From a phage: a stretch of 64,000 bases of DNA. The translations under genes were made by a program, and so were the position numbers. Shown piece by piece: positions 702 to 45,057 of this stretch. The DNA lies in the sequence record PZ445487.1. The stretch is one strand, 5' to 3'. Every line of letters starts with the position of its first letter. Within the stretch, counting starts at the first letter, position 1. The notes beneath the pieces were generated by a model. That model worked only from the letters and a program-made list of their open reading frames with translations, searched no databases and was not told the origin of the DNA.

Positions 702-703
702 CT

Positions 704-1366
704 CTATGATAACTCATGGCGATGTCGAACACAGGCAGGGCAATCACAATTCTTTTTCAAAATTGGCAATTCACACCATGTCATTAAGTCATGTATTGGG
801 GACATGTGATGATAGAACCAAGATTTCTTGAGACTAATCAATGGATATAAAATTTCAATAGATCTTTCCCCGTCTCTGGTCATCATGTTGTATCCTTCAA
901 TAACTTTATTAAAGGCGGGTATCCAGTGTATTGCGTCATCGCCGTTAACATATGCCAAGATATACGTGGGTGGCAAGCCACTGCCTTTAAATTGCGTGTT
1001 TAATAACCATATCGGGGCTTGTGCTAAACAAGCGCGAAAACCACCGTTCGGGACGTTGATGCTACTGATAGGTTCTTGATGATGTGTCCAACGATACATG
1101 AGAAGTGGGGCATTTTTATTAATCCAGTTGTATATTTTATTCCTCGCCCAATTTTCGCGTTTAGATTTAAATTTATTATTTTCGAGGTGGCAATACACAG
1201 TATGAACTGAATATCCTTTCGATAGCAACCAAATCAACATGTATGTGCTATCCACCCCACCAGACCAGAACAACGTCACTTCTTGATTATTCTGCGGCAA
1301 TGGAGCATCCCCTTGAAGAACACGGTATACAAAATCACAATCAGATATTGAGACAACAATTTCCAT
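704..1366 (-). CDS. queC: PP-loop ATPase, QueC-like (7-cyano-7-deazaguanine synthase family)
   Basis: 220 aa; N-terminal LFWSGGVDSTYML resembles the QueC SGGxDS PP-loop, followed by VH.V....E as in E. coli QueC; C-terminal CDCPAC cysteine cluster resembles the QueC zinc site. Confidence 0.55.
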   Translation of the reverse strand: MEIVVSISDCDFVYRVLQGDAPLPQNNQEVTLFWSGGVDSTYMLIWLLSKGYSVHTVYCHLENNKFKSKRENWARNKIYNWINKNAPLLMYRWTHHQEPISSINVPNGGFRACLAQAPIWLLNTQFKGSGLPPTYILAYVNGDDAIHWIPAFNKVIEGYNMMTRDGERSIEILYPLISLKKSWFYHHMSPIHDLMTWCELPILKKNCDCPACVRHRHELS

Positions 1367-1662
1367 TAAAATATTCCTCTTAAAGAATCATTTATCCTGC
1401 GCAATTCGTTTTCCACTTTTATCTTCATATTTTTATCGTCGTTCACGAAAATCATTTTATCTAAATCTTCGCCATTAATCTTTGTATAAAAATAAATGTC
1501 ATGCTCAAAGAAAATCGTTTTTCCAACAGAACGCATGGCAAAGAACGTTGCGATAGTTCTTGGTAAAGGTTTGAATTTAATGGCATTGAAACGCAAAGCC
1601 TGATAGAGAGGTTTTAATGTTCCTAAGCGAATACAATGCTGGATAATTTCTTGCTCTTTCAT
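1366..1662 (-). CDS. hypothetical protein (98 aa)
   Basis: ORF track; same strand and tightly packed with neighbours; start overlaps upstream stop. Confidence 0.45.
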   Translation of the reverse strand: MKEQEIIQHCIRLGTLKPLYQALRFNAIKFKPLPRTIATFFAMRSVGKTIFFEHDIYFYTKINGEDLDKMIFVNDDKNMKIKVENELRRINDSLRGIF

Positions 1663-1718
1663 TTGTTGTGTGCCATAAAGATATGATGGTACAATGATAA
1701 TACATTATACAAATAGAA

Positions 1719-1740
1719 AAGCCCCTTTCGGGGCTTATTT
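1719..1740. terminator. stem-loop aagcccc-tttc-ggggctt followed by T-rich tract
   Basis: Perfect 7-bp GC-rich stem seen directly; overlaps stop of gene 1735..2025. Confidence 0.45.
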
Positions 1741-2025
1741 GTCTTCAGATTCGTACAAACGCCAATTGCCGATGCTAAACCATTCCCCTACATTATTTGA
1801 ATATCTGGTTGTTCGGACTCCTCCGACTTCATACGCCCATTTGAAGAATTTCCATTTGGACGATAAAGAAGGACATTCGCTTCCAGATTTCAAAGAACAC
1901 GCTGTGAGCCAACGTGTAATACTGAGAGCCTGAAAAATCGGATGGATAAATGAAGAATACAATATCCAAAGCGTTATGACAACAAAAACAATGGTCGTGA
2001 TCACCCCGACAATTTGAAAGAACAT
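1735..2025 (-). CDS. small membrane protein (96 aa)
   Basis: ATG at 2025 preceded by GGAGG at 7-nt spacing; N-terminal hydrophobic segment FFQIVGVITTIVFVVITLWIL. Confidence 0.5.
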   Translation of the reverse strand: MFFQIVGVITTIVFVVITLWILYSSFIHPIFQALSITRWLTACSLKSGSECPSLSSKWKFFKWAYEVGGVRTTRYSNNVGEWFSIGNWRLYESEDK

Positions 2026-2102
2026 TTAAGAACCTCCAAAATATTGAACACAGACTATGAAGAAAACTATGATTGTAAACAACCATGAAAACAAGGAAAG
2101 AT

Positions 2103-2735
2103 TCATCCTTCTACCTTCAGCCCCATCAGGTCTTCCATGGTTTTCTGAATGCGTAGCCAGTCAAGCGCCGCATCATAACGAGGATCATGATAGACCATGC
2201 CTTCCAGTTCCCACGCCTTGATACCAGCATATCGATCCTGCTGCCCAACACCCTTCAGCCAGCTTACGATGTCAAATGTGTGGTGATAGTCCCAAGGTTC
2301 GTTGGAATCTTGCTTACACGTCACCTCAATGATGTGCTGAGCCTTGCGTAGGTCAAACAGATTCCTATCACACCAGTCAACCGATCGCGGGTCGATCCCA
2401 AGGCGATGGCATCCCCTGCGAATTTCATCGGCCAATTTGAAAATAGAAATATCCTTGTCGGTCGGATATAGACTGATAGTTCGGGCGGCGTCGCACGGGT
2501 TGCGTTTACCTGTACCCAGCCACCATTCCACAGTGCCCTGGTCTTTCACACGGCCAAGTTCAATCTGTTCTTTGACATTCAGTTTGATAAATGTCGTGCG
2601 CTCTACAACAAGCTGCTGAAGAGTATAACGCTTGGTCAGGTCGGCGATAGTCTGTGCCCAAGACAACATGACAGCATCATCCCAACGACCGAGAGTTTCG
2701 CTATCAGCGACGGCCAAGAAATTAGATTTATACAT
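2103..2735 (-). CDS. 3'-5' exonuclease, DnaQ/DEDDh family (T4 DexA-like)
   Basis: 210 aa; Exo I-like motif AVADSETLG (DxE), WW motif (TVEWWLG), C-terminal YHDPRYDAALD (H-x4-D Exo III motif). Confidence 0.6.
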   Translation of the reverse strand: MYKSNFLAVADSETLGRWDDAVMLSWAQTIADLTKRYTLQQLVVERTTFIKLNVKEQIELGRVKDQGTVEWWLGTGKRNPCDAARTISLYPTDKDISIFKLADEIRRGCHRLGIDPRSVDWCDRNLFDLRKAQHIIEVTCKQDSNEPWDYHHTFDIVSWLKGVGQQDRYAGIKAWELEGMVYHDPRYDAALDWLRIQKTMEDLMGLKVEG

Positions 2736-3072
2736 CAGTTTCCCCTGCTTTCTCTAAAAGGAGTTTCAAAGGATATGTCCCACAAGCGGTGGCATACTCG
2801 ACTTTGAAATATGAATTATCGTTCATGGCGAAATTTCGATGTGGGAAATATTCCCCGTCATCCAACCCGCCTAATCCCCCGCCGACGCGATATTGTTTCA
2901 ACTCAACTTCGCCGCCATAACGGAGTTGGGCATATAGGCCGATAGGAGCGCGAACGTAATGCTCCAGCCATACCCAATTTCCGTCGTGTAAACGTGTAGG
3001 GATAAATGCAAAACGCACCTTGGGATGAAGAACGGCTTTGGCGAGCATCTCTTCTGTTATTTCACGCTTCAT
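2728..3072 (-). CDS. hypothetical protein (114 aa)
   Basis: ORF track; overlapping start/stop with neighbours in an operon-like arrangement. Confidence 0.45.
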   Translation of the reverse strand: MKREITEEMLAKAVLHPKVRFAFIPTRLHDGNWVWLEHYVRAPIGLYAQLRYGGEVELKQYRVGGGLGGLDDGEYFPHRNFAMNDNSYFKVEYATACGTYPLKLLLEKAGETDV

Positions 3073-3674
3073 CCAATACCTTCCTCTTCGATGATATCTT
3101 CTTCACTAGCGACGACAGAGATTCCGTAGTCCACCATCTGGGAAAGTTCTTGTAAATCTTGTTCAAACCCGTCACCCTGTCGGATATAAAAGACGGGTAC
3201 GACACGACGCCTGGTATCTTCGAAGATAGTCTCCGCGATTTTATTAATCTGACTCACTACATGAAACAGTTTCAAACCACCGATGCCACAGCCGATGGCG
3301 GGTAAACCAACATAGACTGTTTCGTCAGTTTTTGCCTCAATGATATCGTGAACTTGTTCAAACATAATCTGAACTGAACTGATAATGGAAGGCATGCGTG
3401 CGTTAGGACCAGGGTAGAACTGAGTATACAAATTGAATCCCCAGACACCAGTGTCATGATCAAACGCATAGGACATGTTCCCCAAACGTTGTTCCGGACC
3501 ACGTTCATCTAATTGGTCGGCTCGGTAAATTTCTGGGAAATCTAATCGAACATGGTTGGCGATACCTGCGCCCATCACAGACCAACAATTTGCTCCATGA
3601 GCGAAAGCATTGATGAGATTAAAACTCGTAGCGGCTTTCAGTAAATCGCCGTTTGTGATAACATATGTGGTCAT
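3069..3674 (-). CDS. macro-domain protein (ADP-ribose binding/hydrolase fold)
   Basis: Start moved to ATG 3674 (GGAG at 9 nt; ATGA overlap with upstream stop). Motifs NAFAHGANCWSVMGAGIA and LPAIGCGIGGL resemble the macro-domain signatures (NAAN...GGGV and PxIGTGxxG). Confidence 0.6.
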   Translation of the reverse strand: MTTYVITNGDLLKAATSFNLINAFAHGANCWSVMGAGIANHVRLDFPEIYRADQLDERGPEQRLGNMSYAFDHDTGVWGFNLYTQFYPGPNARMPSIISSVQIMFEQVHDIIEAKTDETVYVGLPAIGCGIGGLKLFHVVSQINKIAETIFEDTRRRVVPVFYIRQGDGFEQDLQELSQMVDYGISVVASEEDIIEEEGIG

Positions 3675-3907
3675 GCGTAACGTCTCCATTGTATAATTTC
3701 GTTGTTGACACAGCTAACCTGGATGATACACATATTCTGGCGATGGTCAGTGAGTGTCATAATAAAACTATCTGTCTGTGTCATAACGCAATTGACAGAT
3801 ATTCCTCGCATCATCAAACGAACACAGATTTCTTGATATAATCGTTTCATGTATCCTGAAACTGAAGCGGACTCATACACGCGTTCAAATTCATATAACT
3901 CGTTCAT
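3671..3907 (-). CDS. hypothetical protein (78 aa)
   Basis: ORF track; overlaps neighbours by 4 nt at both ends. Confidence 0.4.
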   Translation of the reverse strand: MNELYEFERVYESASVSGYMKRLYQEICVRLMMRGISVNCVMTQTDSFIMTLTDHRQNMCIIQVSCVNNEIIQWRRYA

Positions 3908-4128
3908 TTATTCAGACCATCAATAGCGTGTTCAGAAATATATTCAACAAATTGGTTATCAGCTGCCATCTTTAAAAGTTCAAATAATTCCGTTCCAACG
4001 GTACTCCCAAACATCCCTTCCAATACACCCTGAACATCTTCATCTATTTCTTCGATGACGAGTCCATACGATTTCAGGCGGCGTGAAATAGCACGGAACT
4101 GGGCAATATCACCAATTTCATTTGCCAT
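3904..4128 (-). CDS. hypothetical protein (74 aa)
   Basis: ORF track; ATGA-type overlap with downstream gene. Confidence 0.4.
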   Translation of the reverse strand: MANEIGDIAQFRAISRRLKSYGLVIEEIDEDVQGVLEGMFGSTVGTELFELLKMAADNQFVEYISEHAIDGLNK

Positions 4129-4177
4129 GTTATTTGTCTCATTATGGGGTTAGGCGGCAATTATACCGCCAATTTAT

Positions 4178-4591
4178 TCAATAGAGGTCTTCGGAAAAGA
4201 GTTTTTTGAAAGGAGTGTTCTTCAAACGGACCTGATTAGTTTGTCCGGCTTCACGGGCGACCACAGCGGCCTCTTCACGGGACATCCATTGCCCATAGTT
4301 ATCAATAAACCCTTGTTCACGAGTGTGGGTGGTTTCGATAATACCTGCTTCCTTCAATCGTTTGAGTTGCGTGTTCATCAATTTGTCGTGATGTCGGGCG
4401 CTTACAACGATCACATCACCATATTTGTTGGCAGCAGCCACAACACGCCGATCAAACTTGGTTGGGTCAGGTATATCACGAGCATACAAGGCGATGTGAG
4501 TGTCGTCCACGTCCCCTTTCACTTCAGAGTATAATTGACACCCATTAGGAGATCCAGTAGGCAAAGAACGAAAATATCCAAGTAATTTCAT
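4178..4591 (-). CDS. hypothetical protein (137 aa)
   Basis: ORF track; same strand as flanking genes; no motif recognised. Confidence 0.45.
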   Translation of the reverse strand: MKLLGYFRSLPTGSPNGCQLYSEVKGDVDDTHIALYARDIPDPTKFDRRVVAAANKYGDVIVVSARHHDKLMNTQLKRLKEAGIIETTHTREQGFIDNYGQWMSREEAAVVAREAGQTNQVRLKNTPFKKLFSEDLY

Positions 4592-4594
4592 AAT

Positions 4595-4906
4595 CTAATC
4601 TATCCATATTTCAGGTTCAGGAATATCGACCATCTCCACGGTTTGATTCTTTAATTCGTGGAAACAATCTCCAAGGAATTGTAATTTACCATCAGTCAAG
4701 AACAAATGACAACGACTCGCCGGATGAGAATGATTCACCAACAGACTAGGAGTGAAAGTCGGTGATTCGAGATCGTGATTCCATTGCCATATTGGGCCAG
4801 GCATTTGCCCTGAAATGCGATAAGGATGAAGCATATTACATCCAGGACAATGAAAATATATGGAACCACCCATTGATAATAATTTTGGAGTCAATAATTT
4901 TGACAT
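4595..4906 (-). CDS. hypothetical protein with CxxC zinc-ribbon-like motif (103 aa)
   Basis: Start moved to ATG 4906 (GGAGG at 7 nt); contains HCPGC...C...C. Confidence 0.45.
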   Translation of the reverse strand: MSKLLTPKLLSMGGSIYFHCPGCNMLHPYRISGQMPGPIWQWNHDLESPTFTPSLLVNHSHPASRCHLFLTDGKLQFLGDCFHELKNQTVEMVDIPEPEIWID

Positions 4907-4907
4907 A

Positions 4908-5186
4908 TCACGCCTCCACTTCTTCATCAGGATTGTATGGGTGTAATTCTCCAATTAACTTAGGGAATAATGCGAATCCAAATAAATTAAATGAACGCAT
5001 GGTGCCAACCATACCCACTTCATCCGATTCGGTTACATCAGAAAGAGCGCAAAGAGGTATCCATAAATCTTGTTGGCCTTCATGATTGACAAAAGCAACT
5101 TCCTCTTTAATAAAACGAGGGCATAAGATATCGAACAACCAATAGAAGAAAGTCAGCAATGAGAGACTGCGGAAATATACAAACAT
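4908..5186 (-). CDS. small membrane protein (92 aa)
   Basis: Start moved to ATG 5186; hydrophobic LSLLTFFYWLFDIL segment; stop adjacent to next start. Confidence 0.4.
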   Translation of the reverse strand: MFVYFRSLSLLTFFYWLFDILCPRFIKEEVAFVNHEGQQDLWIPLCALSDVTESDEVGMVGTMRSFNLFGFALFPKLIGELHPYNPDEEVEA

Positions 5187-5228
5187 GGTGAACCCCTTGC
5201 TTGTTTGGAGGGAATTCACCCTCCGGAT

Positions 5229-6560
5229 TTATAGGCCCAATGCCTTTTCAAGATCATCTAAATCTTCAGTATAAAGATCGATGTCTTGCTTATTATTTAA
5301 TTCTTCTCGTTGAACTTCTAAATTCTTTATCTGGTTCAACAAACGTTCACGGGCATCTAGTGTAATTGATGATAAAGACATCTTGAATAAATCATCGAGA
5401 TCGCCATCAAAATCAGGATAGTCTGTCTGGAATAACGCTTTCAGTTCCGTGAGGCTCCGGCGCATATCTGTAACGACAGCCCACCCAATGAATATGGCAC
5501 GATTGTTCAAACGGTGTATTTTGTCGGTCAATTCCTTGATAAGATACTGACGTCTATCTTCATAGCGACTCAGGCGATAATTGAAAAATGGAAGCAACAT
5601 ATCTTTCCAACCATCGTAACGGTGAATAACACCATCTTCATCCCAAGCTGTCCACACGGGCTTATTAGCTGAGTAGAGGCGGAACATTTGTTCAACCTGT
5701 TCGTCATTCAACTTAGACAATTCACCCCGCTTGAATACAACAGTGATATCCCAACCATCTTCGGTCGTATCGTTAGCATATTCAGTGAGTATGCCGGATT
5801 TGTACAACGGCAACAACACTTTGGTCTCATAGGTTTTAGAGAACCAACCAATAGGAACCTCGGTGATGTTCAGAGTGGTTGCATTGACGCGGGTGAACAA
5901 ACCACGACTGTATGCTCTTCCTTCCTCAGTATAGCCTGTCTCTCCTTTGAAACCATTCCAGTACGGTTTTAAGTCCTTCGGGTCTTCGCCACGGAGAAGT
6001 GCTCTCAGGGCACTGAGTACGGACTTAACGCAGTGACATGGGGTGTCGGTGGCATAACCCGAGCCGATACCATTGATACCATTCACGAGAAACATGGGCA
6101 GGATGGGTAAAAAGAATTTCGGCTCCAGTTTCTCTTCCCCAAGATAATTGTATTCCAATATCCCATCGTCCTCCTTTCGGAAGATTTTACGGATAACTTC
6201 AGACACTGCCACTGAAATATAACGAGCGGAAGACGCTTCGCGCCCCATGATTGAACCAAACTGTCCGTCGCGGTCAAAGTATGGGATGTTATTCGTACCT
6301 GGGAACCCCTGAGCCATGTTCACGATCGTACCGCTCATGTTCTCACCACCGGATTTGTAATTCGTGCGAGCGGCGGCGAACATGCCAAGGCGGTCAACAA
6401 TCTCCTCCTTGTTGTATTCAAGAGCAGCGAAGAGTATCTTGCGCTGGCTTGGCTTCAGGCTGTCAATCAGCTGAGGGATTTGACGGATGCTGTTGACCAC
6501 GGAAAACTCCTTGTGGTCAGTGTTGACAAAGTCCGTTACAGTAATGCTCTTGGCAACCAT
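5229..6560 (-). CDS. 52: DNA topoisomerase II medium subunit (T4 gp52-like, GyrA-type)
   Basis: 443 aa from ATG 6560 (GAGG 9 nt upstream), versus 442 aa for T4 gp52; motifs IDSLKPSQRKILFAAL, GQFGS...ARYI, FFLPILPMFLVNGINGIGSGYAT parallel T4 gp52. Confidence 0.85.
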   Translation of the reverse strand: MVAKSITVTDFVNTDHKEFSVVNSIRQIPQLIDSLKPSQRKILFAALEYNKEEIVDRLGMFAAARTNYKSGGENMSGTIVNMAQGFPGTNNIPYFDRDGQFGSIMGREASSARYISVAVSEVIRKIFRKEDDGILEYNYLGEEKLEPKFFLPILPMFLVNGINGIGSGYATDTPCHCVKSVLSALRALLRGEDPKDLKPYWNGFKGETGYTEEGRAYSRGLFTRVNATTLNITEVPIGWFSKTYETKVLLPLYKSGILTEYANDTTEDGWDITVVFKRGELSKLNDEQVEQMFRLYSANKPVWTAWDEDGVIHRYDGWKDMLLPFFNYRLSRYEDRRQYLIKELTDKIHRLNNRAIFIGWAVVTDMRRSLTELKALFQTDYPDFDGDLDDLFKMSLSSITLDARERLLNQIKNLEVQREELNNKQDIDLYTEDLDDLEKALGL

Positions 6561-6561
6561 C

Positions 6562-8475
6562 TTATTCATCCTCGGTTTCAAATAGGCAAACATCGCTAAA
6601 CCAGGTTTTGCGGTAATCGGCGGCCTCATCACCGAAGCCATTCTTCAGTGACTGCTTGTATCCATCGTCCAGCGTGACCGTCGTAGTATACGCATCCAGG
6701 TTGTTTAGAATACGCTTGAAGTCTTCAGTGCTGTTACCGCCAAGACCTTTCAGATATTTCTTCTTCGTGATCTTCTTGGCGTCAGGTGTCTTCAGGAACT
6801 CCTCATATTCGGCATTGTTCATGAATTCATGCATTATATTACCACACCACACGCGCATGTATGGGGTACGAAGGAGCTTCAGCCTACCCTGACGAACGTA
6901 TTCAGGCCAGAACGTACAATACAGAGTTATTAACAACCCACGGATGTGAATGCCGTCGTCATCCGCGTCTGTTGCCACGACGGTCTGTGGATAGCGACTG
7001 ATATCAAGCGGCTGGCCTGGCACAGCACCGCCGTGAATGGTGCATAAATTCTTGAATTCTTCGTTCGCCATCACTTTTGAGCGCGGGGCGTTCAAGCAGT
7101 TGATAAACTTACCACGAAGCGGGAACAAACCAATTTTCTTGGTATCACGAGCGTTCAGGATAGGGTTGGATGCGCTATCACCTTCTGTCAGTAGCAGCGA
7201 ACACCCACTGCGGTCGCCTCTGGCGGTCGCCGGATAATACTTCTCAATCTCACGATAATCCCGTTTGCTGATATCCTTCTTCGCCTTTTCAAATTCGGCA
7301 TCTTCTTGTTCATTGCGTAATGAAGCCAGTTCTTTACTCAGCCCTGCTGTCACGAACTCAAGCGCCTTACGAATCAGACGTTCGCTTGGCTTGTAGGTCG
7401 TGCCAAACTGGCTAACAGGAGTCGTCATGCGCTCCTTGGTCTGGCTGTCAAAGCGAGGGTTGTTGATGTCGGCGGCGATGAACAATGACATGTGGTTCTT
7501 GATCATCGCTGGCTTCAGTTCGGTCTTGAACTTCTTAACCAGCTGAGGGCGTATAGCCGCCACGATCTGGTCAGCAACATAATCAACGTGAGGTCCACCG
7601 ATGTGCGTGGCGATTGAGTTCACGTATGATGCATGCATGAACGCACCAGATGAGGGAGTGATAGCAACAGACCAATCATCCGTTTCATCAACAGCCGAGC
7701 CAGCGTAGAAGTAATCAACGAAATGACCAAATCGATCAATGCGGATTTGCTTGCCGTTGAGAACAACCTTCAGGCGCGGGTTGCATGCCGCCACTTCGAA
7801 TGCACGACGGTAAATCATGAGCAGGTTGTTCTGGTCAAGCCCCTTAACACCCAGGCGCGCATAATCAGGGATCCAGGCAATAGTGGTGCCGAACTCTTTC
7901 GGTGTATTGCCGATGACCGGATTGGACTTCTTGCTCATGTTGTCTTCAAACAGCTGAGTATAAGACTTCTTGCCGTCACTGGTAGCAACGCGGAACCACT
8001 TTGAGAACACGTTGACGAGCGAAGCCCCTTCACCGTTCTGGCCGCCGGACTTCTGGTTGTTGTACTCCTCGTCCTCATCGTTGAAGTTGCTGCCCGCATA
8101 GAGCGAGCCAAACAACATCTCAGGGAGCCACTCATTGGTGACGCCATGCTTGACCACAGGGATACCCCCGTTGTCAGAAACGATGATTTGACCGTTCATA
8201 GGGGAGACCGTGACGGTGATTTCCGTCAAGCCTTTACCCTCAGAGGTCTTGCTGTGGTCAACACAGTTGGTGATGATTTCATCAAACTGTTTGATCAGCG
8301 CAGGGGAGTACTCAAAGTTGTCACGGAAGATGACTTTGTCTTTGGTTGGGTCATACACCCACACCGTCCCCACAGACGAACGGATACTGCCCAGATGACG
8401 CTCTGGGCGAAGTAGGATATGCTCTATGTGAGTGAGCTTTTTGTATTTGCGTTCAATATCAATTTTGTTGGACAT
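6562..8475 (-). CDS. 39: DNA topoisomerase II large subunit (T4 gp39/gp60-like, GyrB-type ATPase)
   Basis: 637 aa; GHKL ATPase and TOPRIM-like content; immediately upstream of gp52 on the same strand. Confidence 0.85.
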   Translation of the reverse strand: MSNKIDIERKYKKLTHIEHILLRPERHLGSIRSSVGTVWVYDPTKDKVIFRDNFEYSPALIKQFDEIITNCVDHSKTSEGKGLTEITVTVSPMNGQIIVSDNGGIPVVKHGVTNEWLPEMLFGSLYAGSNFNDEDEEYNNQKSGGQNGEGASLVNVFSKWFRVATSDGKKSYTQLFEDNMSKKSNPVIGNTPKEFGTTIAWIPDYARLGVKGLDQNNLLMIYRRAFEVAACNPRLKVVLNGKQIRIDRFGHFVDYFYAGSAVDETDDWSVAITPSSGAFMHASYVNSIATHIGGPHVDYVADQIVAAIRPQLVKKFKTELKPAMIKNHMSLFIAADINNPRFDSQTKERMTTPVSQFGTTYKPSERLIRKALEFVTAGLSKELASLRNEQEDAEFEKAKKDISKRDYREIEKYYPATARGDRSGCSLLLTEGDSASNPILNARDTKKIGLFPLRGKFINCLNAPRSKVMANEEFKNLCTIHGGAVPGQPLDISRYPQTVVATDADDDGIHIRGLLITLYCTFWPEYVRQGRLKLLRTPYMRVWCGNIMHEFMNNAEYEEFLKTPDAKKITKKKYLKGLGGNSTEDFKRILNNLDAYTTTVTLDDGYKQSLKNGFGDEAADYRKTWFSDVCLFETEDE

Positions 8476-8524
8476 CGGCCTATCCCGTCAATGGTAAACA
8501 CACAAGATTATGTATGGGGTTGGC

Positions 8525-9103
8525 TTATAGACCAAATTTACCACGCCACTTTTCAACTTTGTGTTCTATGGCATGTTCTACTTTAACGATCGTGTTGATA
8601 TGGTTTTGATTATACCCACACGCCAATTTGGCAGTATTGCGTATCAGATTTGAAACCAGGTCCACCATATTATCTTCTGAACGTTGAGGTTGGTTCAGTA
8701 AACGAGTGATGCGGCCTTTGTAATGATTAACCATCGCAAGATATTTGTCTATAGTTTCAACACCACTGCAGAACCAATAATCCTCCAACGTATGTTGGCT
8801 GAGATCAGTTGTGTGATTGGCCGTAGCCAAAGCAAACACCATGGAGTCAAAGATTTCTTCTTTGGTCATAGACCCATGTTGTTGAACTTGTTGATAATCC
8901 ACAACATATAATAGATCCAGAGCCGAGATGATAACGTCCGCCACTTCACCGTTCAGGGGTTCGGATGCAGCGATTCCATAAAGCACATCTGATAGTTCAC
9001 AAGACTCTTCCACGAGTTTGCAATATACAAACACAGGAGAACGATTAGGATCGCGCTGGCTGAGTTCATATGATGTGTTGAAGATAATTTTTAGAAAATT
9101 CAT
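8525..9103 (-). CDS. MazG-like all-alpha NTP pyrophosphohydrolase (T4 gp56 dCTPase analogue?)
   Basis: 192 aa; KLVEESCELSDVL and EVADVIISALDLLY resemble the paired E-x-x-E / E-x-x-D helices of the MazG/HisE family. Confidence 0.45.
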   Translation of the reverse strand: MNFLKIIFNTSYELSQRDPNRSPVFVYCKLVEESCELSDVLYGIAASEPLNGEVADVIISALDLLYVVDYQQVQQHGSMTKEEIFDSMVFALATANHTTDLSQHTLEDYWFCSGVETIDKYLAMVNHYKGRITRLLNQPQRSEDNMVDLVSNLIRNTAKLACGYNQNHINTIVKVEHAIEHKVEKWRGKFGL

Positions 9104-9116
9104 TTCAAATATCCTT

Positions 9117-9599
9117 CTAGACGGAAGCGGTTAATATGCTGTATGATAAAATCCATAGAGTTTTGAAAACTGTATTTCCCTGATGCTCATATGCATGAAT
9201 AAGGGGAAGACGGCTGTGGGCCAATTGGAATCTCAACTTGGATGGCATTGTCAGCAATTTTTGACTCGTCGCTGCGATAATGTCTCGTTTAAATTTGGGA
9301 TCATCAGGGGACAATACAACGATGCGTGACTTGGCCAGGGTTTGTCCAAATTGCTTGGCGTCGTTCCCGTAAAGACTACGCAAGTCGTCGTGGCGATATT
9401 TTAGCCAATACCAGTAGCCTTCTATTGAGTTGAAATTACCATCAACAGTATCCATGGGATGGTATGCAAAATGGGAAAGGAATCTGCCTAGTTCTGTGCG
9501 ACTTCGACTGTATATGTTGTAATGGGTCTTACCTTCACTATCCGGCGTCATACGTTCTTTTGGAACATTGAGTAATGGGAGCATGATATAGGGTCTCAA
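9117..9599 (-). CDS. hypothetical protein (about 160 aa; start uncertain)
   Basis: ORF track; first codon of the listed ORF is TTG; internal ATGs at 9584 and 9551 lack clear SD. Confidence 0.45.
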   Translation of the reverse strand: MRPYIMLPLLNVPKERMTPDSEGKTHYNIYSRSRTELGRFLSHFAYHPMDTVDGNFNSIEGYWYWLKYRHDDLRSLYGNDAKQFGQTLAKSRIVVLSPDDPKFKRDIIAATSQKLLTMPSKLRFQLAHSRLPLIHAYEHQGNTVFKTLWILSYSILTASV

Positions 9600-9863
9600 A
9601 TCAAAATTGCTGTGTGTGTGTTAAATCAGATCTTTTTGTACGCTTTCAAAGCACTAATAACCGAGACGCCGCCAAATAGAACTAACAATATGAATCGTTC
9701 CATCCTGAAATCAGGAAGGGAAAGCAGTCCCACAAGGCTGTCTAAAGCAATCATGAACGTTACTCCAGTCAGCATGCCCAACTTAAAGGAGTTGGAACCT
9801 CTTTTGCAACGTAGCATAAATCACCTCCGATTCAAATGGGGAGTTCTCTCCCCACACAGATAT

Positions 9864-10373
9864 CTAGCCCAGAAACACTACTAAAGTCAAATTTGTGAGA
9901 CTGGTCCGAGCATCCTGCAACATTTCACGGGCAGCGGCTAAACGTTTTACATCATGTAGAGTGTCAGAGAACACGATTATGTTAGCCTTATCGATCCTGG
10001 TCCCCATGAAATGGGTGATTGTCGTCGTGCTCTCTTTCTTGTCGACATCAGGGATAAGTAATTCTTCGCCCGTCTGAGGGTTGCGGGAAGGATAGAAGAA
10101 TGCATCACGTTCACGAGAAGTATGGAAGACGCCAAACACATATGCGTCGTTTTCGACCTGAAACTTTTTAGAAAGTAGTTTCTTCAGAGCGGCTGTATGT
10201 CCGGTCTGGCGGAGCATTCTGTAGTAGAGCATGTTGCCGGAGCAAATAGGGTCTATCACTCCCCTAATTTGACGTTCCTTTTGTATCTCATACGCATCTG
10301 CCACAAGCTGCTGGATCATATCGACATGGGCATTCATGGAGATTTCTATTTTACGTTTGATCATAGATTGCAT
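9864..10373 (-). CDS. hypothetical protein (169 aa)
   Basis: ATG 10373 preceded by GAGGA at 8 nt. Confidence 0.5.
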   Translation of the reverse strand: MQSMIKRKIEISMNAHVDMIQQLVADAYEIQKERQIRGVIDPICSGNMLYYRMLRQTGHTAALKKLLSKKFQVENDAYVFGVFHTSRERDAFFYPSRNPQTGEELLIPDVDKKESTTTITHFMGTRIDKANIIVFSDTLHDVKRLAAAREMLQDARTSLTNLTLVVFLG

Positions 10374-10424
10374 TTGGTATATCCTCAGTTAGGTTCCGCT
10401 CATGGGGAACGGGTCCATTATACA

Positions 10425-10462
10425 CCCAATGCTGGAAATGAAAAAGAGGCCGAAGCCTCTTT
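10425..10462 (-). terminator. rho-independent terminator-like hairpin (aaagaggc-cgaa-gcctcttt) with T-rich tract on the minus strand
   Basis: 8-bp perfect stem directly at the stop of gene 10461..10682. Confidence 0.5.
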
Positions 10463-10682
10463 AATCGTCGTATTGGCCTGTCCTGAAATTCCATTTTCGC
10501 GCCTTGGATAAATCCAAATCTTTGAAAATGCTGCCAAAGATCTTTTTAAAATCAGACTCTTCTTCAAGATCTTTTGGTTTTTTGACAGGCTCCTTAACCA
10601 TACCGCCTTCGGGTTTCCCCACATCGGCGGTCGTGGTTGCCGGAGCAGAAGAGTCTTCAAGGAAATCCTGGAAGCTCTTCAT
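10461..10682 (-). CDS. hypothetical acidic/lysine-rich protein (73 aa)
   Basis: ORF track; ATG 10682 right after the stop of the Ig-like gene; followed by terminator hairpin. Confidence 0.4.
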   Translation of the reverse strand: MKSFQDFLEDSSAPATTTADVGKPEGGMVKEPVKKPKDLEEESDFKKIFGSIFKDLDLSKARKWNFRTGQYDD

Positions 10683-10685
10683 AAA

Positions 10686-11507
10686 TTACACCACAGCCAT
10701 TTCACAACGAGTAGACGTGACAGAATGGCCATCTGCATCAGAAACAACACACCAATATTCGCCTTCATTTGCGGCTTCAACTGCTGTGATAACCAGGTTA
10801 GCAGTGGCGGCGGTGGCATTAGTGCCAGCATCGATAACTGACCCCGCACCCCCAGGAGTATCAGAGAAATGCCACACATAAGTGTATGGAGTTGTACCGC
10901 CCGCAGCAACAACACTAAAGGTTCCGTCTTGTCCAGAAGTCACGTCTTTGGTGGCAGGTAAATCAGTCGACAGCGATAGAGCGCCTGCAACTGTAATAAC
11001 CGTAGAATCTGTGTGATTCCCTTCAACCGTGACACCATAAACCGTTACAGTTCCTGAAGCCAGCAATTTGAATTTACCACCACCGACATGTACAGCTTTC
11101 GTAATATCACCAGAATACCAATTAACGCCTTGATATGTGGCATTGGCAGGGGATACCGTCGCTAGCAATTCAACAAATTGTCCGATCTCTCCGCTGGCTG
11201 TAGCTGGAGTAATCACAAGTCCGGTGGTTAAAATAGCATTCGGATCGTGGATTTCATAAGATACTTGAAAGCCGATAGGCTTGGTGGGATCCACTTTGGT
11301 GACACCGTCCGCTTGTAAATTGCTCTTGGTGAGCAGAGCGTCAAGACCTTTACATTCGGTCAGGATCTCATCAGGATCTTGGTTGAGGCTGGTCTTTTGC
11401 CAACCCTTTGCAACACCCGTCACGACATGATTGCGTTCGGTTTCGGGTTTGTTGCGGACAACTTCCGGTGCGACTAATACTGTGATTGTTGGCATGGTTT
11501 CCTCCAC
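10686..11507 (-). CDS. Ig-like domain protein (Hoc-like surface or decoration protein?)
   Basis: 273 aa rich in T/S/G/V beta-strand pattern; C-terminal EGEYWCVVSDADGHSVTSTRCEMAV is a typical Ig-domain Y-x-C motif. Confidence 0.55.
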   Translation of the reverse strand: MEETMPTITVLVAPEVVRNKPETERNHVVTGVAKGWQKTSLNQDPDEILTECKGLDALLTKSNLQADGVTKVDPTKPIGFQVSYEIHDPNAILTTGLVITPATASGEIGQFVELLATVSPANATYQGVNWYSGDITKAVHVGGGKFKLLASGTVTVYGVTVEGNHTDSTVITVAGALSLSTDLPATKDVTSGQDGTFSVVAAGGTTPYTYVWHFSDTPGGAGSVIDAGTNATAATANLVITAVEAANEGEYWCVVSDADGHSVTSTRCEMAVV

Positions 11508-11866
11508 TCATCCAAATCGTTGTTCAGAGCCATCATCAGCTCATTATCTGGTTCGTATGAACCGGAACATAAATCATCTCGCCAAACTCCTAACGTCAAC
11601 AGCGCTGCTTTAAGACGAGGATGTTGGTTCTTATCCGTTTTCAACACCAACATTCGGCACACGGCTTCGGTTTCAAAGGTATTGAAAAGAATAATCAATT
11701 GATTGATAAGTACTCGAGGACTTTTCCCTGGCACAAATCTTTTCAATGATTGATTAATTAGCGAAATTCGCTGAATGTCTACCATCAAATCATCTCTTGA
11801 GACACCAGGGGTGATATAATGTCTTAGAGCGTACTCCATCAAATTGCTTTCGTCAACGATAGCCAT
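11474..11866 (-). CDS. hypothetical protein (130 aa)
   Basis: ORF track; same-strand packing. Confidence 0.45.
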   Translation of the reverse strand: MAIVDESNLMEYALRHYITPGVSRDDLMVDIQRISLINQSLKRFVPGKSPRVLINQLIILFNTFETEAVCRMLVLKTDKNQHPRLKAALLTLGVWRDDLCSGSYEPDNELMMALNNDLDEWRKPCQQSQY

Positions 11867-11898
11867 ATTGAATTATAATCAGCAGTTATACACTGGGA

Positions 11899-12312
11899 TT
11901 ATTTAATCTGCAGTTTTTCAGCCAATTGCGAGATTATTTCATTACGGTCAGTCGCGTCGATACCCAGGGGTTCCGCAAGTGTTTTAAGATCATTGATATC
12001 GAGCAAAAGAAGAACTTCAACTGTAATATCGGTTGATACCACAGTACCTGGTTTCATCGGCTTACCGAATTTATCTAACCCATAACGGCGCAAAGTTCCG
12101 GCAAGTCCGGTGAGTTCCTCTAGAAGCTCCTTAGAGCCGTCTTTATATTCACACACCCAACCGTAGTCACCAGCGTAGACAATACCGCCGTCGCCGCCCT
12201 GAGGCACGTTATCCACCACGCGTTGCAGATAACTGGGAAGTTTATTTTCTTCCTGTGCAGTGATTTCTTGGATGGTTTGGGTGTTTTCAATTTTCTTTTG
12301 TGTCTTCGCCAT
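11899..12312 (-). CDS. hypothetical protein (137 aa)
   Basis: Start moved to ATG 12312 (GGAG upstream); the longer ORF start would overlap the upstream gene. Confidence 0.5.
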   Translation of the reverse strand: MAKTQKKIENTQTIQEITAQEENKLPSYLQRVVDNVPQGGDGGIVYAGDYGWVCEYKDGSKELLEELTGLAGTLRRYGLDKFGKPMKPGTVVSTDITVEVLLLLDINDLKTLAEPLGIDATDRNEIISQLAEKLQIK

Positions 12313-12586
12313 GATCAGTTCTCCTATAGACTGTAATATATTTACCACAACAATTGCAGCAATAAACATGCATGGAATATCCGTCGTCGTTAAAGTCACA
12401 GCCGCCACAACGACAAAATAATTTCACGAACTGGTCGCCTATGACTTCTCTCGGAGGAAAATTCCTGAACGAGTATTCCTTGAGTTCTCCATCAAATTGG
12501 AATGAATCAACAAGGAACTTTGTTTTTCGGCGCAGTGATCCAAATGCCTGTTGCTCATACACGAAGTAAACATCTCTGGTTTCCAT
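12287..12586 (-). CDS. Cys-rich zinc-finger-like protein (99 aa)
   Basis: CRCGGCDF...CCNCCGKY cysteine clusters; ORF track. Confidence 0.45.
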   Translation of the reverse strand: METRDVYFVYEQQAFGSLRRKTKFLVDSFQFDGELKEYSFRNFPPREVIGDQFVKLFCRCGGCDFNDDGYSMHVYCCNCCGKYITVYRRTDHGEDTKEN

Positions 12587-12639
12587 ATCGACCTCAAAGA
12601 AAAGGAGGCCGAAGCCCCCTCTTTTATGTCAGTTCGCGG

Positions 12640-14223
12640 TTACTTGTATAGACCTTCAACATCAATGGATTTATGTTGGCGGTTGTATTCCGTGGTGTAA
12701 TCGTCTAATACCAGATATTCACAGCAGCGGATTTTACTGGAGCCATAATCATCAGTGATAGACACGATATCTTTCGGGTTCAGTTTGCAACGGACAACGC
12801 GTTGTCCCAGGCTACCAAAACATTGTTTCAGATAAGCCAGAGAACAAACGTGAAGACCGTAAGAGCACAGATCTTTGTTGTTATCGTTCACGAATGAGCG
12901 AGCCATCCGAACAATGGTGCCAGGAGCATTACTAACTTTTCCTGTGCGCTTGTCCATGTAGTTACCGCGAACGGATTTATACAGAATGATATCACCGTCT
13001 TCATGAATTTCGATATCCGAATATGCCATGAATTCATAGATTCGACCGGACTGAACCAGCGCGGCGCTCGGGTTTTGGAACATTTTGTCCAGGAAACGAC
13101 CCAAGCGTTCCAAGTTCGGATAATCGCCTTTTAATGCCAAAGCCAAAATGCGTTTGGCAACGGAAGTTCCGGTGATATCATAGCCACCCCAGCGAACACG
13201 ATTGTCTGAAAGGTCAACCATGCCTGTGGTGAATTGTTTGATGGCTTCACGCGGTTTCATCAGAGTGTACGCTGTTTTGACGTCACGATTTTTAATCGCT
13301 TCAACAATACGGTCATACGCCTGGTGGCTCGTTGTGATCGTTTCCGGTTTACCATCAACCACGATCACGATACTTTCCGGCAAAATCATGATCTGGTGTT
13401 CGTTCAGGAACACAGACAGATCTTTTTCATTAAATGAATTCTGAGTTTGCTTGTCGCCTGTTTCTCCAACAACTGCAACAGTCTTGACCACGAATAATAC
13501 GGATGACAATGCCAGACGAAGTGTACGGCCTAAAATTACATCAAAGTAACCCACGCGCCGACGGGCATCAAGGGAACCGCGCATCGGGTATGTTTCGCCG
13601 TCATGTTGTACACTGATTACCACGCCATCATTGACTTTGGTAACGCCATCAACCAGTGCTGTCGCCAATTCGGCCAACGGCGAAATATTTTCTTCATTGA
13701 AGCGGCTTGACCGAGTTTCTAACGGTTTCAGTTCTTCGCTTCTGAAAAGTTTGGCCTGAATAGCAGCAGAGCTATCGTAACGCATACAGATAAACACTGT
13801 TTGGTTTTCCAGGAAACGGCCAACATACCATTCTTCGCCTTCAGAATCGACAGACACCGAACCTTCCAGAACTTCATAGGTGTCGGGGATTTTCCCTTCT
13901 TCAGTCAATTCTTTAATTGGCGAAATCACGACCACGTTATTAGATTCTTTGATGATACGAACCATCAGGGCGCGGGCAATTGTTTTGGCACTGACGCCAT
14001 AAACTGATGCCAGAGAAGAATTGCTTTCACCTTTGCTGCTCTTGGTTTGTATTTCTTGAATCTGTTCAGTGGTCAGAGACTTAATCGAAGCTGGATCCAC
14101 TCCCAGTTCTTTATCCGACACGCGTTGTATCATTGAGCGCGGTACGCCCAATTCACTGGCTATTGAACTTTGACTTCTGTTCTCATTCAACAGCTTGAGA
14201 ATACGTTTTTCTATAGCATTCAT
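12640..14223 (-). CDS. rIIB: rIIB-like protein
   Basis: 527 aa; C-terminus (EDGDIILYKSVRGNY...GKVSNAPGTIVRMARSFVNDNN...SYGLHVCSLAYL...RVVRCKLNPKDIVSI) parallels the T4 rIIB C-terminal region; N-terminal HTH-like segment; directly downstream of rIIA. Confidence 0.8.
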   Translation of the reverse strand: MNAIEKRILKLLNENRSQSSIASELGVPRSMIQRVSDKELGVDPASIKSLTTEQIQEIQTKSSKGESNSSLASVYGVSAKTIARALMVRIIKESNNVVVISPIKELTEEGKIPDTYEVLEGSVSVDSEGEEWYVGRFLENQTVFICMRYDSSAAIQAKLFRSEELKPLETRSSRFNEENISPLAELATALVDGVTKVNDGVVISVQHDGETYPMRGSLDARRRVGYFDVILGRTLRLALSSVLFVVKTVAVVGETGDKQTQNSFNEKDLSVFLNEHQIMILPESIVIVVDGKPETITTSHQAYDRIVEAIKNRDVKTAYTLMKPREAIKQFTTGMVDLSDNRVRWGGYDITGTSVAKRILALALKGDYPNLERLGRFLDKMFQNPSAALVQSGRIYEFMAYSDIEIHEDGDIILYKSVRGNYMDKRTGKVSNAPGTIVRMARSFVNDNNKDLCSYGLHVCSLAYLKQCFGSLGQRVVRCKLNPKDIVSITDDYGSSKIRCCEYLVLDDYTTEYNRQHKSIDVEGLYK

Positions 14224-14255
14224 CTTGTAGTTCTCACTGTGGGGTAATGGGGCTA

Positions 14256-16997
14256 TTATGCCCCGAGAATACGTTTTGAAATAGCCTTCACAAATCTAGT
14301 GGCATCTTCAATCGCGTTGTGTGCCGAAGGCTGATATGTTGACATCATGAATTTCACCAAACGATGACATTCAACTCGGTATCGGTTTTTGGCCTTTTGC
14401 TTTTGAGATATAGTGCTAGTGACCTTTATCTCATCAAATCCTTCAGCAGTTAATTTTTCATTCAATAAATCAACAACTTGAGTTAACTGGTTACAGGCGC
14501 GGAAAAATCTCGTAGTTGAGAAAGGCATTTCTATATGATAATGTAATTCCTCAACAGCCTTGCGGAAATAACCGTACCCCGATCCAGACGGATTTCGTTT
14601 GGCCAGCATACGAACAATCTTCCATTCTTCTTCAGTGATTTGTTGTTTCGCATAACTGATGATTGCTTTTGCCCTGTGTTGATGATGGGCATAGCCATCC
14701 GTAACTTTTCCATGGGAATCAATCAACAGCTTGGCACCATAATCAATGCGATGAGACATGATGTTTATGCCCTTGCGAAGTTTCAGGAGTTTCTTAGATT
14801 CAAGCGCCTGAAATTCATCTTTATAATGCTCAAGCAACATATCAAACACTGCGTCAATGGGGATGAATACTTCTGGGAATTTCTTCATCATCGGAACAGA
14901 TTTACGACGCGCAAGAACGATTGTTGGATGTGCTCCCAGCAAATCAAACAGGTTTTCGTTTCCATTCTCGCCGAACTTCGTTCTTTCCATCGCTTCACGC
15001 AAATGTCCAGCCGCGGATTGTCGTAAGGTATTACCATGAATTTTATGGATACCTTCTCGGCCAGATACTTCGATATATACGATCTTTTTGCCCGAATCAA
15101 TAATATCTGAAACGGTTTTTCCATCTAATTCATAAACGCGGTCGAAGTTAAATGAATTGTAATGGAAACTAAACATCCCAGGATCTTTTTCAACGGTCGG
15201 GCGAACATATTCCATTTCATGCATGAAATAGACTTCATCCGGATTGAATAAATCGCCAAAGACCTCGATCAGTTTATCGGCAAAGACCAGGTAGTCCGGC
15301 GTTGTTTCTTGTACACCGATCCATGATTCAAAATAAGACTTCAATTCCTCATGGTTGGTAAATGATTCTTTATGTGCCGCCAGCTGATTCCGATTACTGA
15401 AATAATTTTCATTCGGTTTGACGACGATAACGACATTGAAGTTATTGCGTGCTGTTTGTATCTTCAGGTTTCGAGCACGATTCGAGTTATCAATAATAAC
15501 AGCAATTTTTGATTTAGATTTCAACCAATTTCCGACAGAGTTCACATAAATGCTGTCGTGTACTACACCGTTGTCGTGTACTTCAATTTCGTAAGGACTA
15601 CCAATAGACCGGAAAGGTGCATCCAAAGAGTAATCGCGCACGACGTCCGGCGCTCCGATATAACGGAACGTGCCTTTGTAGAAACGGTTATCTGCAGGAA
15701 ATTCCCGTTCGACCAATTTACGGAAACCACTACCGAACATATCAGTCAGCTGAGTCTTTTTCATATACAACATAAGAGGACCCATAGATTCGGCCTGGCG
15801 AAGTTCATACATCTTCGCCTGCATAATATTGTCAGCCACATGCTTGAACACGCGGTTCAGGCTTTCACGGGTGAACTCGTCATATGACAAGTCTTCACGT
15901 GATGGAGGAACATTCAATTCTCCAAGTTCGAAGAAGGTATAGGAACTCGGGAATTTTTCCAGCACGGTGCATATTTCAGAGTCCAATTGGTCGAGATCTA
16001 TCGGGTAAGAAACCCCGCCCATGACAGCATAGTGGATGTTGTCGGAATCTAACTTCGGTTGGATATATGTGTTGCCTACACGGTTTTCGAAGTTGATGTC
16101 AGACCAACGGAAAGAATAACTGGCGTTTTCAACCTTCGGTCGCATTGAAGGTCGCATCACTCGACCCAAACGGACCAACTCTTGTTCAAAGGCGGTAAAA
16201 CGCTGATTCTTTACAGGAACTTTAACAGTCAGGCCGTTGAACTCATCAGTGTCCTCCGGTTTAGGATCACGGGTATCTAAATCCTTGGTAATGAGATCCA
16301 CAGTTGGGATTCTGTCCGCATTCAGATACATCAGGAAACGATACAGTTTCCCTTCATAGCGACTTTCTACTGTAAATGAATCAGATACAGCAAATGGGGA
16401 TTTAGAACCTAGCCCAAACGCCCCTATTTGCCCGTCGTCGTCCTCTTTTGTACTATGGAAGAGTGTTGTATACAAACCAGGTCCACGAATGATCTCGCCA
16501 TCCTCAGCGCGGAATACCAGTACCCCATTATAATAACCAGGTGTACCAATAACAGCAGTGCTATCAGGGATTTCGTCTTCCTTCACGACGATATTACCTT
16601 CAACCAGCACTTCATCTTCACGCGCTGTAATAGGCTCGCCGATGATCATTTCTAATGGAAGACCAACCCCATAATCTTTAATTTCCAGCCAGGGTTCCAT
16701 AACATCCGGTAAATGTACAACAACAGGAGTTCCCTTGGGGGCAAGATGTTTGCTGTATCGTTGAGGCATAGGAGTGAGAGGAGCATAATGCGATGGCATC
16801 CAGCGTTGTTGGCGATCACGCATATTATGTGAGTCTATACCATTACACAACGTCTCACGCAAAGACGCCGCCTCTTTATATTTGTAGAGACTTGAAAATA
16901 ATGTTTCAAATAATTTATCCGTCATCTTGACATTGAATGTCTGTCCGACGATGGTAGAAGAAGAGCGCACGAAATGCTCGGACTTGCGCATTTTCAT
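14256..16997 (-). CDS. rIIA: rIIA-like protein (GHKL-ATPase-type)
   Basis: 913 aa; position immediately upstream of rIIB; ATG 16997 with AGGAA upstream. Confidence 0.8.
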   Translation of the reverse strand: MKMRKSEHFVRSSSTIVGQTFNVKMTDKLFETLFSSLYKYKEAASLRETLCNGIDSHNMRDRQQRWMPSHYAPLTPMPQRYSKHLAPKGTPVVVHLPDVMEPWLEIKDYGVGLPLEMIIGEPITAREDEVLVEGNIVVKEDEIPDSTAVIGTPGYYNGVLVFRAEDGEIIRGPGLYTTLFHSTKEDDDGQIGAFGLGSKSPFAVSDSFTVESRYEGKLYRFLMYLNADRIPTVDLITKDLDTRDPKPEDTDEFNGLTVKVPVKNQRFTAFEQELVRLGRVMRPSMRPKVENASYSFRWSDINFENRVGNTYIQPKLDSDNIHYAVMGGVSYPIDLDQLDSEICTVLEKFPSSYTFFELGELNVPPSREDLSYDEFTRESLNRVFKHVADNIMQAKMYELRQAESMGPLMLYMKKTQLTDMFGSGFRKLVEREFPADNRFYKGTFRYIGAPDVVRDYSLDAPFRSIGSPYEIEVHDNGVVHDSIYVNSVGNWLKSKSKIAVIIDNSNRARNLKIQTARNNFNVVIVVKPNENYFSNRNQLAAHKESFTNHEELKSYFESWIGVQETTPDYLVFADKLIEVFGDLFNPDEVYFMHEMEYVRPTVEKDPGMFSFHYNSFNFDRVYELDGKTVSDIIDSGKKIVYIEVSGREGIHKIHGNTLRQSAAGHLREAMERTKFGENGNENLFDLLGAHPTIVLARRKSVPMMKKFPEVFIPIDAVFDMLLEHYKDEFQALESKKLLKLRKGINIMSHRIDYGAKLLIDSHGKVTDGYAHHQHRAKAIISYAKQQITEEEWKIVRMLAKRNPSGSGYGYFRKAVEELHYHIEMPFSTTRFFRACNQLTQVVDLLNEKLTAEGFDEIKVTSTISQKQKAKNRYRVECHRLVKFMMSTYQPSAHNAIEDATRFVKAISKRILGA

Positions 16998-17074
16998 AGT
17001 ATAGAATTCCTGTTCAGATCAAAGAAGAACACATTATTGGGTAAGGTTATGATACTGGCGGGTGGTTCAATAGA

Positions 17075-32934: not shown

Positions 32935-32973
32935 AGATACCCCACACTGGTCGTATGGGGTATTTAGGATGGA

Positions 32974-45053: not shown

Positions 45054-45057
45054 ACAA

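Follow-up and report, generated by a model that had tools for sequence, protein, structure and literature searches.

Among the closest described systems are three phage decoration proteins with immunoglobulin (Ig)-like domains. Hoc of phage T4 is present as one copy at the centre of each hexameric capsomer and is dispensable; its Ig domains come first and are followed by a domain at the C-terminus that binds the capsid. In pb10 of phage T5, an N-terminal particle-binding part precedes the exposed C-terminal Ig-like domain(s), and gp17 of phage N4 is built from three Ig-like domains, DI-DIII. Roles in adherence or stabilisation have been proposed for all three. Here we describe orf006, a gene for an Ig-like protein on the minus strand of a 64,000-nucleotide stretch of phage DNA from sequence record PZ445487.1 (this whole stretch is called the window, and positions are counted from its first letter). 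The reading that fits best, with a probability of about 0.72, is that orf006 encodes a modular Ig-like surface decoration that is anchored through its N-terminus, most probably on the capsid shell, and that is probably transcribed late. The protein appears to work like Hoc, pb10 and gp17 but, judged by its sequence, to belong to none of these families.

The 4 kbp around orf006 are 100% identical to Escherichia phage CBA120 (Kuttervirus, Ackermannviridae; JN593240 / NC_016570) and at least 99% identical to many other Kuttervirus genomes from Salmonella and Escherichia coli phages. Window positions 16997 down to 1 correspond to positions 1-16997 of the CBA120 genome, as the reverse complement. 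In the databases the gene is annotated as a 'structural protein with Ig domain' (RefSeq) or as a 'putative tail protein' (GenBank). The PHROG 215 profile, also named 'structural protein with Ig domain', matches residues 1-269 with an expectation value (E) of 2.6e-82, and orf006 is a full member of this family, the Ig-like virion proteins of the Ackermannviridae. Other members are ORF006 of phage phiSboM-AG3 (AG3), ORF6 of LIMEstone1, orf14 of KSP90 and a protein called 'tail fiber' in Vi01. They differ only in their annotated names, which include tail protein, tail fiber, Hoc and hypothetical protein.

Orthologues of orf006 are virion proteins, and abundant ones. In AG3, whose ORF006 (27.6 kDa) is 85.5% identical to orf006, the protein is among the six most intense bands when virions purified on caesium chloride (CsCl) are separated by sodium dodecyl sulfate polyacrylamide gel electrophoresis, and it was identified from 6 peptides; the other five intense bands belong to the major head protein, the sheath, the tube and two large proteins of tailspike type (PMC3121705). 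In the virion proteome of LIMEstone1, ORF6, which the authors named Hoc, was found with 4 unique peptides and 22% coverage. The protein gp83 of Salmonella phage Sajous1 is syntenic with orf006 and 85% identical to it, and CsCl-purified virions gave 43 spectra of gp83 (PMC10892097). The GenBank record of Serratia phage KSP90 names the orthologue an 'Ig-like virion protein'. The data from AG3, LIMEstone1 and Sajous1 concern the presence of the protein in the particle as a whole. From the sequence alone, the first-pass annotation of this gene had suggested a host-interaction factor, and in the sense of a protein acting outside the virion this does not agree with its abundance in CsCl-purified particles.

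Where on the particle the protein sits is a separate question, for which placement on the tail or neck is the chief alternative. It is possible, but clearly the less probable choice, that orf006 is a tail, neck or baseplate component with Ig-like domains instead of a head decoration. The names 'tail protein', 'tail fiber' and 'whisker' appear in many GenBank records, the PHROG matches include Ig-bearing major tail proteins, and several matches of the predicted structure in BFVD are tail proteins. However, the similarity from which these tail names derive is limited to the Ig domains, which are promiscuous. Of the proteins with a solved structure, it is the capsid decorations N4 gp17 and T5 pb10 that match best by sequence, and the LIMEstone authors placed the orthologue on the head. 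The intensity of the AG3 band is comparable to that of sheath and tube; this fits decoration of every tail ring or of every capsomer, and abundance data cannot separate tail from capsid. A fibre present in 6-18 copies would be unexpected among the six strongest bands, though large tailspike-type proteins are found there as well. A capsid location is nevertheless favoured, because the nearest characterised relatives of the Ig domains are capsid decorations (N4 gp17, T5 pb10 and the Hoc-like PHROGs) and because the intensity of the AG3 band points to roughly as many copies as there are of the sheath and tube proteins. By analogy with these relatives, orf006 most probably sits on the head.

The Ig-like nature of the protein, which had been proposed from hallmarks in the translated sequence, is supported both by domain searches and by structure prediction. 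Pfam Ig_3 matches residues 182-252 with 33.8 bits (cut-off 30, E 5e-8), and weaker, sub-threshold matches to V-set, ig and I-set overlap the same region. Upstream of it, Big_2 matches residues 92-162 with 17.3 bits, which is below its cut-off of 22.8, and several orthologues carry precomputed Big_2 (PF02368) matches. Comparison with sequences in the PDB gives N4 gp17 (9e99_J, '32 kDa protein') with E 2.9e-13 and a Big_2 domain (7quz) with E 7e-11, followed by the decoration protein of Moo19 (9d7z_J) and T5 pb10 (8zvi, 5lxk). Hoc-like PHROGs and those of Ig-bearing tail proteins match the Ig part of orf006 only. An AlphaFold2 model based on an alignment of 20 sequences contains two beta-sandwiches (residues ~89-170 and 171-269), and from residue ~90 to 269 the predicted local distance difference test score (pLDDT), averaged over blocks, is ~82-96. 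A model from the single sequence was unusable (mean pLDDT 33). When the alignment-based model is compared with the PDB using Foldseek, it matches Big_2-CBM56 and the tandem Ig domains of titin, NCAM and FGFR, as well as the decoration proteins of N4 and Moo19 (33% identity, with a root mean square deviation of 2.8 and 3.8 Å, respectively). Among predicted viral structures it matches the orthologue from Serratia phage phiMAM1 and the decorating protein of the T5-like phage Gostya9, the latter being a good structural match (template modelling score 0.48, 190 columns). An Ig fold is predicted by both routes, and the outcome that would have refuted the first-pass proposal, a lack of any such prediction, did not occur.

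The three reference proteins resemble orf006 to different degrees, and the comparison with a Hoc-type decoration that was made at first pass is judged to be right. N4 gp17 (9e99/9lbz) is the best match among solved structures: residues 171-263 of orf006 align with residues 87-180 of gp17, and the Foldseek alignment covers 110 columns. Both are multi-domain Ig-like virion surface proteins, but only one of the three gp17 domains aligns and there is no homology over the whole chain; unlike gp17, orf006 has a non-Ig (or at least unpredicted) N-terminal module and two Ig-like domains. T5 pb10 follows the same logic as orf006, with the particle-binding part first and the exposed Ig-like part last. 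The similarity (E ~1e-5) covers residues 170-266 of orf006 only, and on the pb10 side it is limited to residues 70-155 of the 8zvi chain or to 5lxk, which is an isolated C-terminal Ig construct. In the PDB comparison the N-terminal capsid-binding domain of pb10 has no homology to the N-terminus of orf006, and orf006 has one Big_2 domain more than pb10. Like T4 Hoc, orf006 is a non-enzymatic protein with tandem Ig-like domains on the virion surface of a T4-related myovirus. Its domains come in the opposite order, with the conserved non-Ig module at the N-terminus, and only its C-terminal Ig domain (residues ~168-266) is matched by the Hoc-like PHROGs 2973, 4069 and 3945. The presumed anchor of orf006 is without similarity to either pb10 or gp17.

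The conservation of orf006 is modular. In the alignment of orthologues, the N-terminal ~88 residues are nearly invariant across genera, the Big_2 domain is moderately conserved, and the C-terminal module is exchanged. Kuttervirus, Agtrevirus, Limestonevirus and Taipeivirus have an Ig_3/I-set domain here, and Serratia-type and metagenomic relatives carry one or two more Big_2 domains instead; the protein of Erwinia phage phiEa2809 (175 amino acids) is without the C-terminal Ig module altogether. Searches in very large sequence collections find few relatives. With the whole protein as query, only 26 of 5.8 billion clustered sequences match at E <= 1e-5, and almost all of these belong to Ackermannviridae-like contigs. 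The N-terminal module alone has 13 matching cluster representatives at E <= 0.001 among 1.84 billion, of which about nine are real relatives; the five weakest matches (P0033 and P0035-P0038, large or repeat-rich proteins) appear spurious on inspection. Wherever a relative of the module is available in full length, the module is at the N-terminus and is followed by one to three Ig-like domains. This combination, an anchor that is conserved and exposed Ig domains that can be exchanged, is what one would expect of a decoration on the particle surface. In the proposed arrangement, the N-terminal module would dock the protein on a conserved particle surface, most probably the capsid shell, and the Big_2 domain and then the terminal I-set/Ig_3 domain would project outward, where they would be free to vary. 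Through these outward domains the particle may bind weakly and multivalently to carbohydrates or to surfaces of other kinds, and perhaps gain some stability.

The N-terminal module also has a possible relative within the same gene cluster. Two genes upstream of orf006, orf004 encodes a free-standing DUF7440 protein (Pfam, E 9.9e-48), and the N-terminal module of orf006 matches the same profile below its cut-off (E 4.7e-4). Compared directly, the two are 31% identical over 71 amino acids in BLASTP (E 0.004), and a profile-profile alignment with hhalign gives a probability of 84% with E 8e-6 over 52 columns. As far as sequence comparison can tell, the two are probably distantly related paralogues. 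Homologues of orf004 were found by tblastn in Ackermannviridae only. Profiles of the N-terminal module and of orf004 both gave zero matches in the PDB, and orthologues of orf004 and orf005 are unreported in the virion proteomes of LIMEstone1 and Sajous1. One could imagine that the N-terminal part of orf006 is a previously undescribed virion-binding module and that orf004 acts as a competitor, adaptor or assembly factor at shared sites on the particle, setting the density of the decoration, but this is a speculative extension that we consider rather improbable. If it were true, orf004 and orf006 would form a two-gene decoration system that goes beyond a simple analogue of Hoc.

The genomic position of orf006 had led to a different suggestion in the first-pass annotation, namely that an early-region copy of an Ig-like gene may be a moron, an acquired accessory gene. 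The description of the surroundings was correct: orf006 does lie between rIIB and the gene for the large subunit of topoisomerase II. It is also true that it lies away from the structural module, but this is unremarkable, as the authors of the LIMEstone paper describe structural genes as scattered over the whole genome and on both strands, and distance from the main head-tail module is therefore normal in these phages. That orf006 is an early-expressed moron or a non-virion factor acting on the host during infection is very improbable. In its favour, the gene stands between rIIA/rIIB and the HU-like, MazG-like and topoisomerase genes in the same orientation, neither an exact CTAAATA nor TATAAATA lies upstream of it, and the terminator after rIIB may leak. 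This reading is already largely refuted by the abundance of the orthologues in purified virions of three relatives. Furthermore, the gene is a syntenic core gene of the family with normal base composition, and it belongs to a unit that has its own terminators and, upstream, conserved late-promoter-like cores at canonical spacing.

The protein occurs in nearly every member of the Ackermannviridae that was examined. The protein is found in 335 phage records, in 271 of them with a coverage of at least 80%, and the gene occupies the same position in six genera of Ackermannviridae (Kuttervirus, Agtrevirus, Limestonevirus, Taipeivirus, Miltonvirus and Nezavisimistyvirus). The order rIIB, terminator, orf003-orf005, Ig gene, small open reading frame (ORF), terminator, HU-like gene is shared by Agtrevirus, Limestonevirus, Taipeivirus and Kuttervirus, and Nezavisimistyvirus and Miltonvirus keep a reduced form of it. 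In the core genome that has been published for the family, the gene appears as 'tail fiber', directly after RIIB (PMC10892097). Orthologues from other enterobacterial and Dickeya phage genera share 82-91% identity with orf006, and those from Serratia and Erwinia phages share 44-60% over the N-terminal half. The GC content of orf006 is 0.46-0.51, compared to 0.40-0.47 in the flanks, and gives no sign of a foreign origin. In the CBA120 genome the protein matches one place only (tblastn), so there is a single detectable copy and not a second, early one. An ORF of identical length (269 amino acids, 60883-61692, plus strand) was considered as a paralogue and rejected, as it has no similarity to orf006.

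Some database records deserve a comment. GenBank entry OR844942.1, 'Enterococcus phage Efm 3-10' (111 kb), contains at 84804-85610 a copy that encodes a protein 100% identical to orf006; it is probably mislabelled or a contaminated assembly. A single 'Pseudomonas' and a single 'Yersinia' record also match the orf006 region. The window itself runs across coordinate 1 of the CBA120 GenBank record (the start of rIIA) at 16997/16998, with DNA polymerase, tailspike and neck genes beyond 16998, which means that the source sequence is permuted or circularised relative to that record.

The genes orf003 to orf007 form a block that is bounded by two intrinsic terminators, one after rIIB and one after orf007; equivalent sites are annotated as terminators in phage Menlow. 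The paper from 2011 that describes CBA120 states that no late-promoter sequence was known for the ViI family, and notes homologues of T4 gp55, gp33 and gp45. In the window, eight tailspike, baseplate and neck genes have CTAAATA, often as CTAAATACC(CC), at 21-37 nt before their ATG. The shorter TAAATA occurs 36 times in the window, counting both strands, and in 12 of these cases it lies 21-37 nt upstream of a start codon on the same strand, where uniform placement would give ~0.6; the orf003-orf007 block contains two of these 12. The same core is also present in CBA120's main head-tail module, before the genes for the scaffold, orf192, the sheath, the head-closure protein Hc2 and orf208, while the variant CTAAGTA precedes the major head gene and CTAATTA the portal and tube genes. 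Taken over the window and positions 80-115 kb of the CBA120 genome, a (C)TAAATA core is seen 21-42 nt upstream of many structural-gene starts. The T4 late consensus TATAAATA was rejected as a general late signal, as it occurs twice in the window, which is the level expected by chance.

The two cores within the block are candidate gp55-type late promoters, located 26 nt upstream of orf004 and 33 nt upstream of orf005, at the spacing also seen before head, tail and tailspike genes. The first is identical in CBA120, AG3, phiD3, Menlow and Sajous1 even though neighbouring synonymous positions vary. In phiEa2809, which is without orf003, the corresponding site before the orf004 homologue (~1640-1680) is intergenic and consists of a T4-type TATAAATA just after a terminator hairpin, which speaks for a late promoter at the same place throughout the family. 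The second is kept in CBA120, AG3, Menlow, Sajous1 and KSP90, and reads TAAGTA in phiD3, the variant that also precedes the major head gene of CBA120. Late units between early units are usual in T4-related genomes. On this sequence evidence, orf004-orf007 including the Ig gene are probably a late transcription unit embedded between early units, and orf006 would be transcribed from the TAAATA-core promoters before orf004 and orf005. From its location among early genes one cannot conclude that orf006 is expressed early, since the block is bounded by terminators and contains late-promoter-like cores. Directly after the terminator of orf007 and before the gene for the HU-like DNA-binding protein, there is a sigma-70-like promoter (TTTTCA, 16 nt spacer, TATAAT; 10417-10444, minus strand), which would make the HU-like gene a separate unit that depends on the host polymerase.

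Several points weigh against the reading of orf006 as an N-terminally anchored, late-transcribed capsid decoration. On the side of the promoters, the C that is preferred before TAAATA is missing from both candidates, both are placed within the upstream coding sequence or at its end, and matches to CTAAATA with at most one mismatch occur in the block at chance density. As an exact CTAAATA is absent from window positions 1-17000, the case for late promoters is one of spacing and of conservation across genera. The gap between the rIIB terminator and orf003 is too small for a promoter, so read-through from the early rII unit may contribute to transcription of the block. A literature search found no transcriptome of an Ackermannviridae infection, and likewise no cryo-electron microscopy structure of an Ackermannviridae capsid; searches also gave no solved structure or mutant for any orthologue, and no virion proteome of CBA120 itself. 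On the side of the protein, the PDB matches are confined to the Ig domains, and 'tail protein' and 'tail fiber' are names that many records give to the family. Model confidence is low in the N-terminal module (pLDDT ~30-50 for residues 9-76), so its anchoring role is deduced from conservation.

It is worth noting that strong hairpins are found at three structural genes in the tailspike region of the window, at 45014-45060 and 48228-48270 on the plus strand and at 32932-32967 on the minus strand (-18 to -19.6 kcal/mol, z -4 to -6.7). Each spans from the putative late-promoter core (CTAAATACCCC...) to a few nucleotides before the ATG (...GGGGTAT), and the promoter-proximal part of the leader would pair with the region where the ribosome-binding site is expected. 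These hairpins could be a shared element for leader stability or for control of translation.

The exact start of orf006 differs between records. An ORF of 273 amino acids that begins with GTG at 11507 is indeed present on the minus strand (10686-11507), as had been described at first pass. However, the true start is most likely the ATG at 11495, giving 269 amino acids, because a GGAGG lies 5 nt upstream of it, GenBank annotates this start, and all orthologues begin with MPTI or MPKI. The GTG start that is used in some records is probably wrong. The start of orf006 overlaps the 3' end of orf005 by 22 nt, and the two genes are therefore probably co-transcribed and coupled, as far as their arrangement indicates. 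Some structural proteins of phages gain Ig-like domains through frameshifting, and an overlap of two frames as seen here could in principle allow the same, in which case the Ig domains would be an optional C-terminal extension of orf005. This is the least probable of the explanations considered here and hardly credible: the overlap is without a slippery heptamer, a strong Shine-Dalgarno sequence and an ATG precede orf006, the AG3 virion protein has the mass of orf006 alone (27.6 kDa, both predicted and by mass spectrometry), and orthologues of orf005 were not detected in the virion proteomes of LIMEstone1 and Sajous1. The coordinates of orf006, its parts and its surroundings are collected in Table 1.

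Table 1. Position of orf006, its predicted domains, expression signals and neighbouring genes in the window.
Feature	Position	Strand	Remarks
orf006 coding sequence (CBA120_gp006, YP_004957709.1)	10686..11495	-	269 aa (amino acids) + stop; CBA120 genome 5503-6312
orf006, N-terminal ~88 residues, presumed virion-anchoring, weakly DUF7440-like	11232..11495	-	most conserved part of orf006
orf006, middle domain, Big_2-type Ig-like beta-sandwich (predicted), residues ~89-170	10986..11231	-	sub-cut-off Pfam match, 7quz match, confident model
orf006, C-terminal domain, Ig_3/I-set Ig-like (predicted), variable exposed module, residues ~171-269	10689..10985	-	Ig_3 match, N4 gp17 match
Shine-Dalgarno sequence GGAGG	11501..11505	-	5 nt before ATG 11495; read from sequence
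TAAATA core, candidate gp55-type late promoter	12339..12344	-	26 nt upstream of orf004 ATG
TAAATA core, second candidate late promoter	11900..11905	-	33 nt upstream of orf005 ATG
Intrinsic terminator after rIIB, upstream boundary of block	12596..12622	-	-16.2 kcal/mol, z -2.1; GC stem, UUCG loop, U-run
Intrinsic terminator after orf007, downstream boundary of block	10443..10462	-	terminator scan; -12.3 kcal/mol, z -4.0; GC stem, UUCG loop, U-run
rIIA	14256-16997	-	
rIIB	12640-14223	-	
orf003	12287..12586	-	99 aa; first gene of block
orf004	11899..12312	-	DUF7440, 137 aa
orf005	11474..11866	-	DUF7207, 130 aa
orf007	10461..10682	-	73 aa; last gene of block
HU-like gene	9864-10373	-	then two further ORFs before MazG-like gene
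MazG-like gene	8525-9103	-	
Topoisomerase II large subunit	6562-8475	-	

As a protein orf006 was already known, both as an annotated structural gene and through the experimental detection of its orthologues in virions. The new points are small: a likely late operon, a late-promoter core, a probable mis-start in some records, and the relationship between the anchor module and DUF7440. As a practical by-product, researchers working on Ackermannviridae have a candidate late-promoter core, (C)TAAATA, along with TAAGTA and TAATTA as its variants, and the link between the anchor module and DUF7440 may be of use to them as well. The labels 'tail fiber' and 'tail protein' that are given to this family go back to similarity of the Ig domains alone. 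It is plausible that orf006 mediates virion-borne contact with host or environmental surfaces. An abundant, modular and exposed protein of this kind would be a natural scaffold for display, and it is likely to be an immunodominant antigen of the Kuttervirus phages used in biocontrol.

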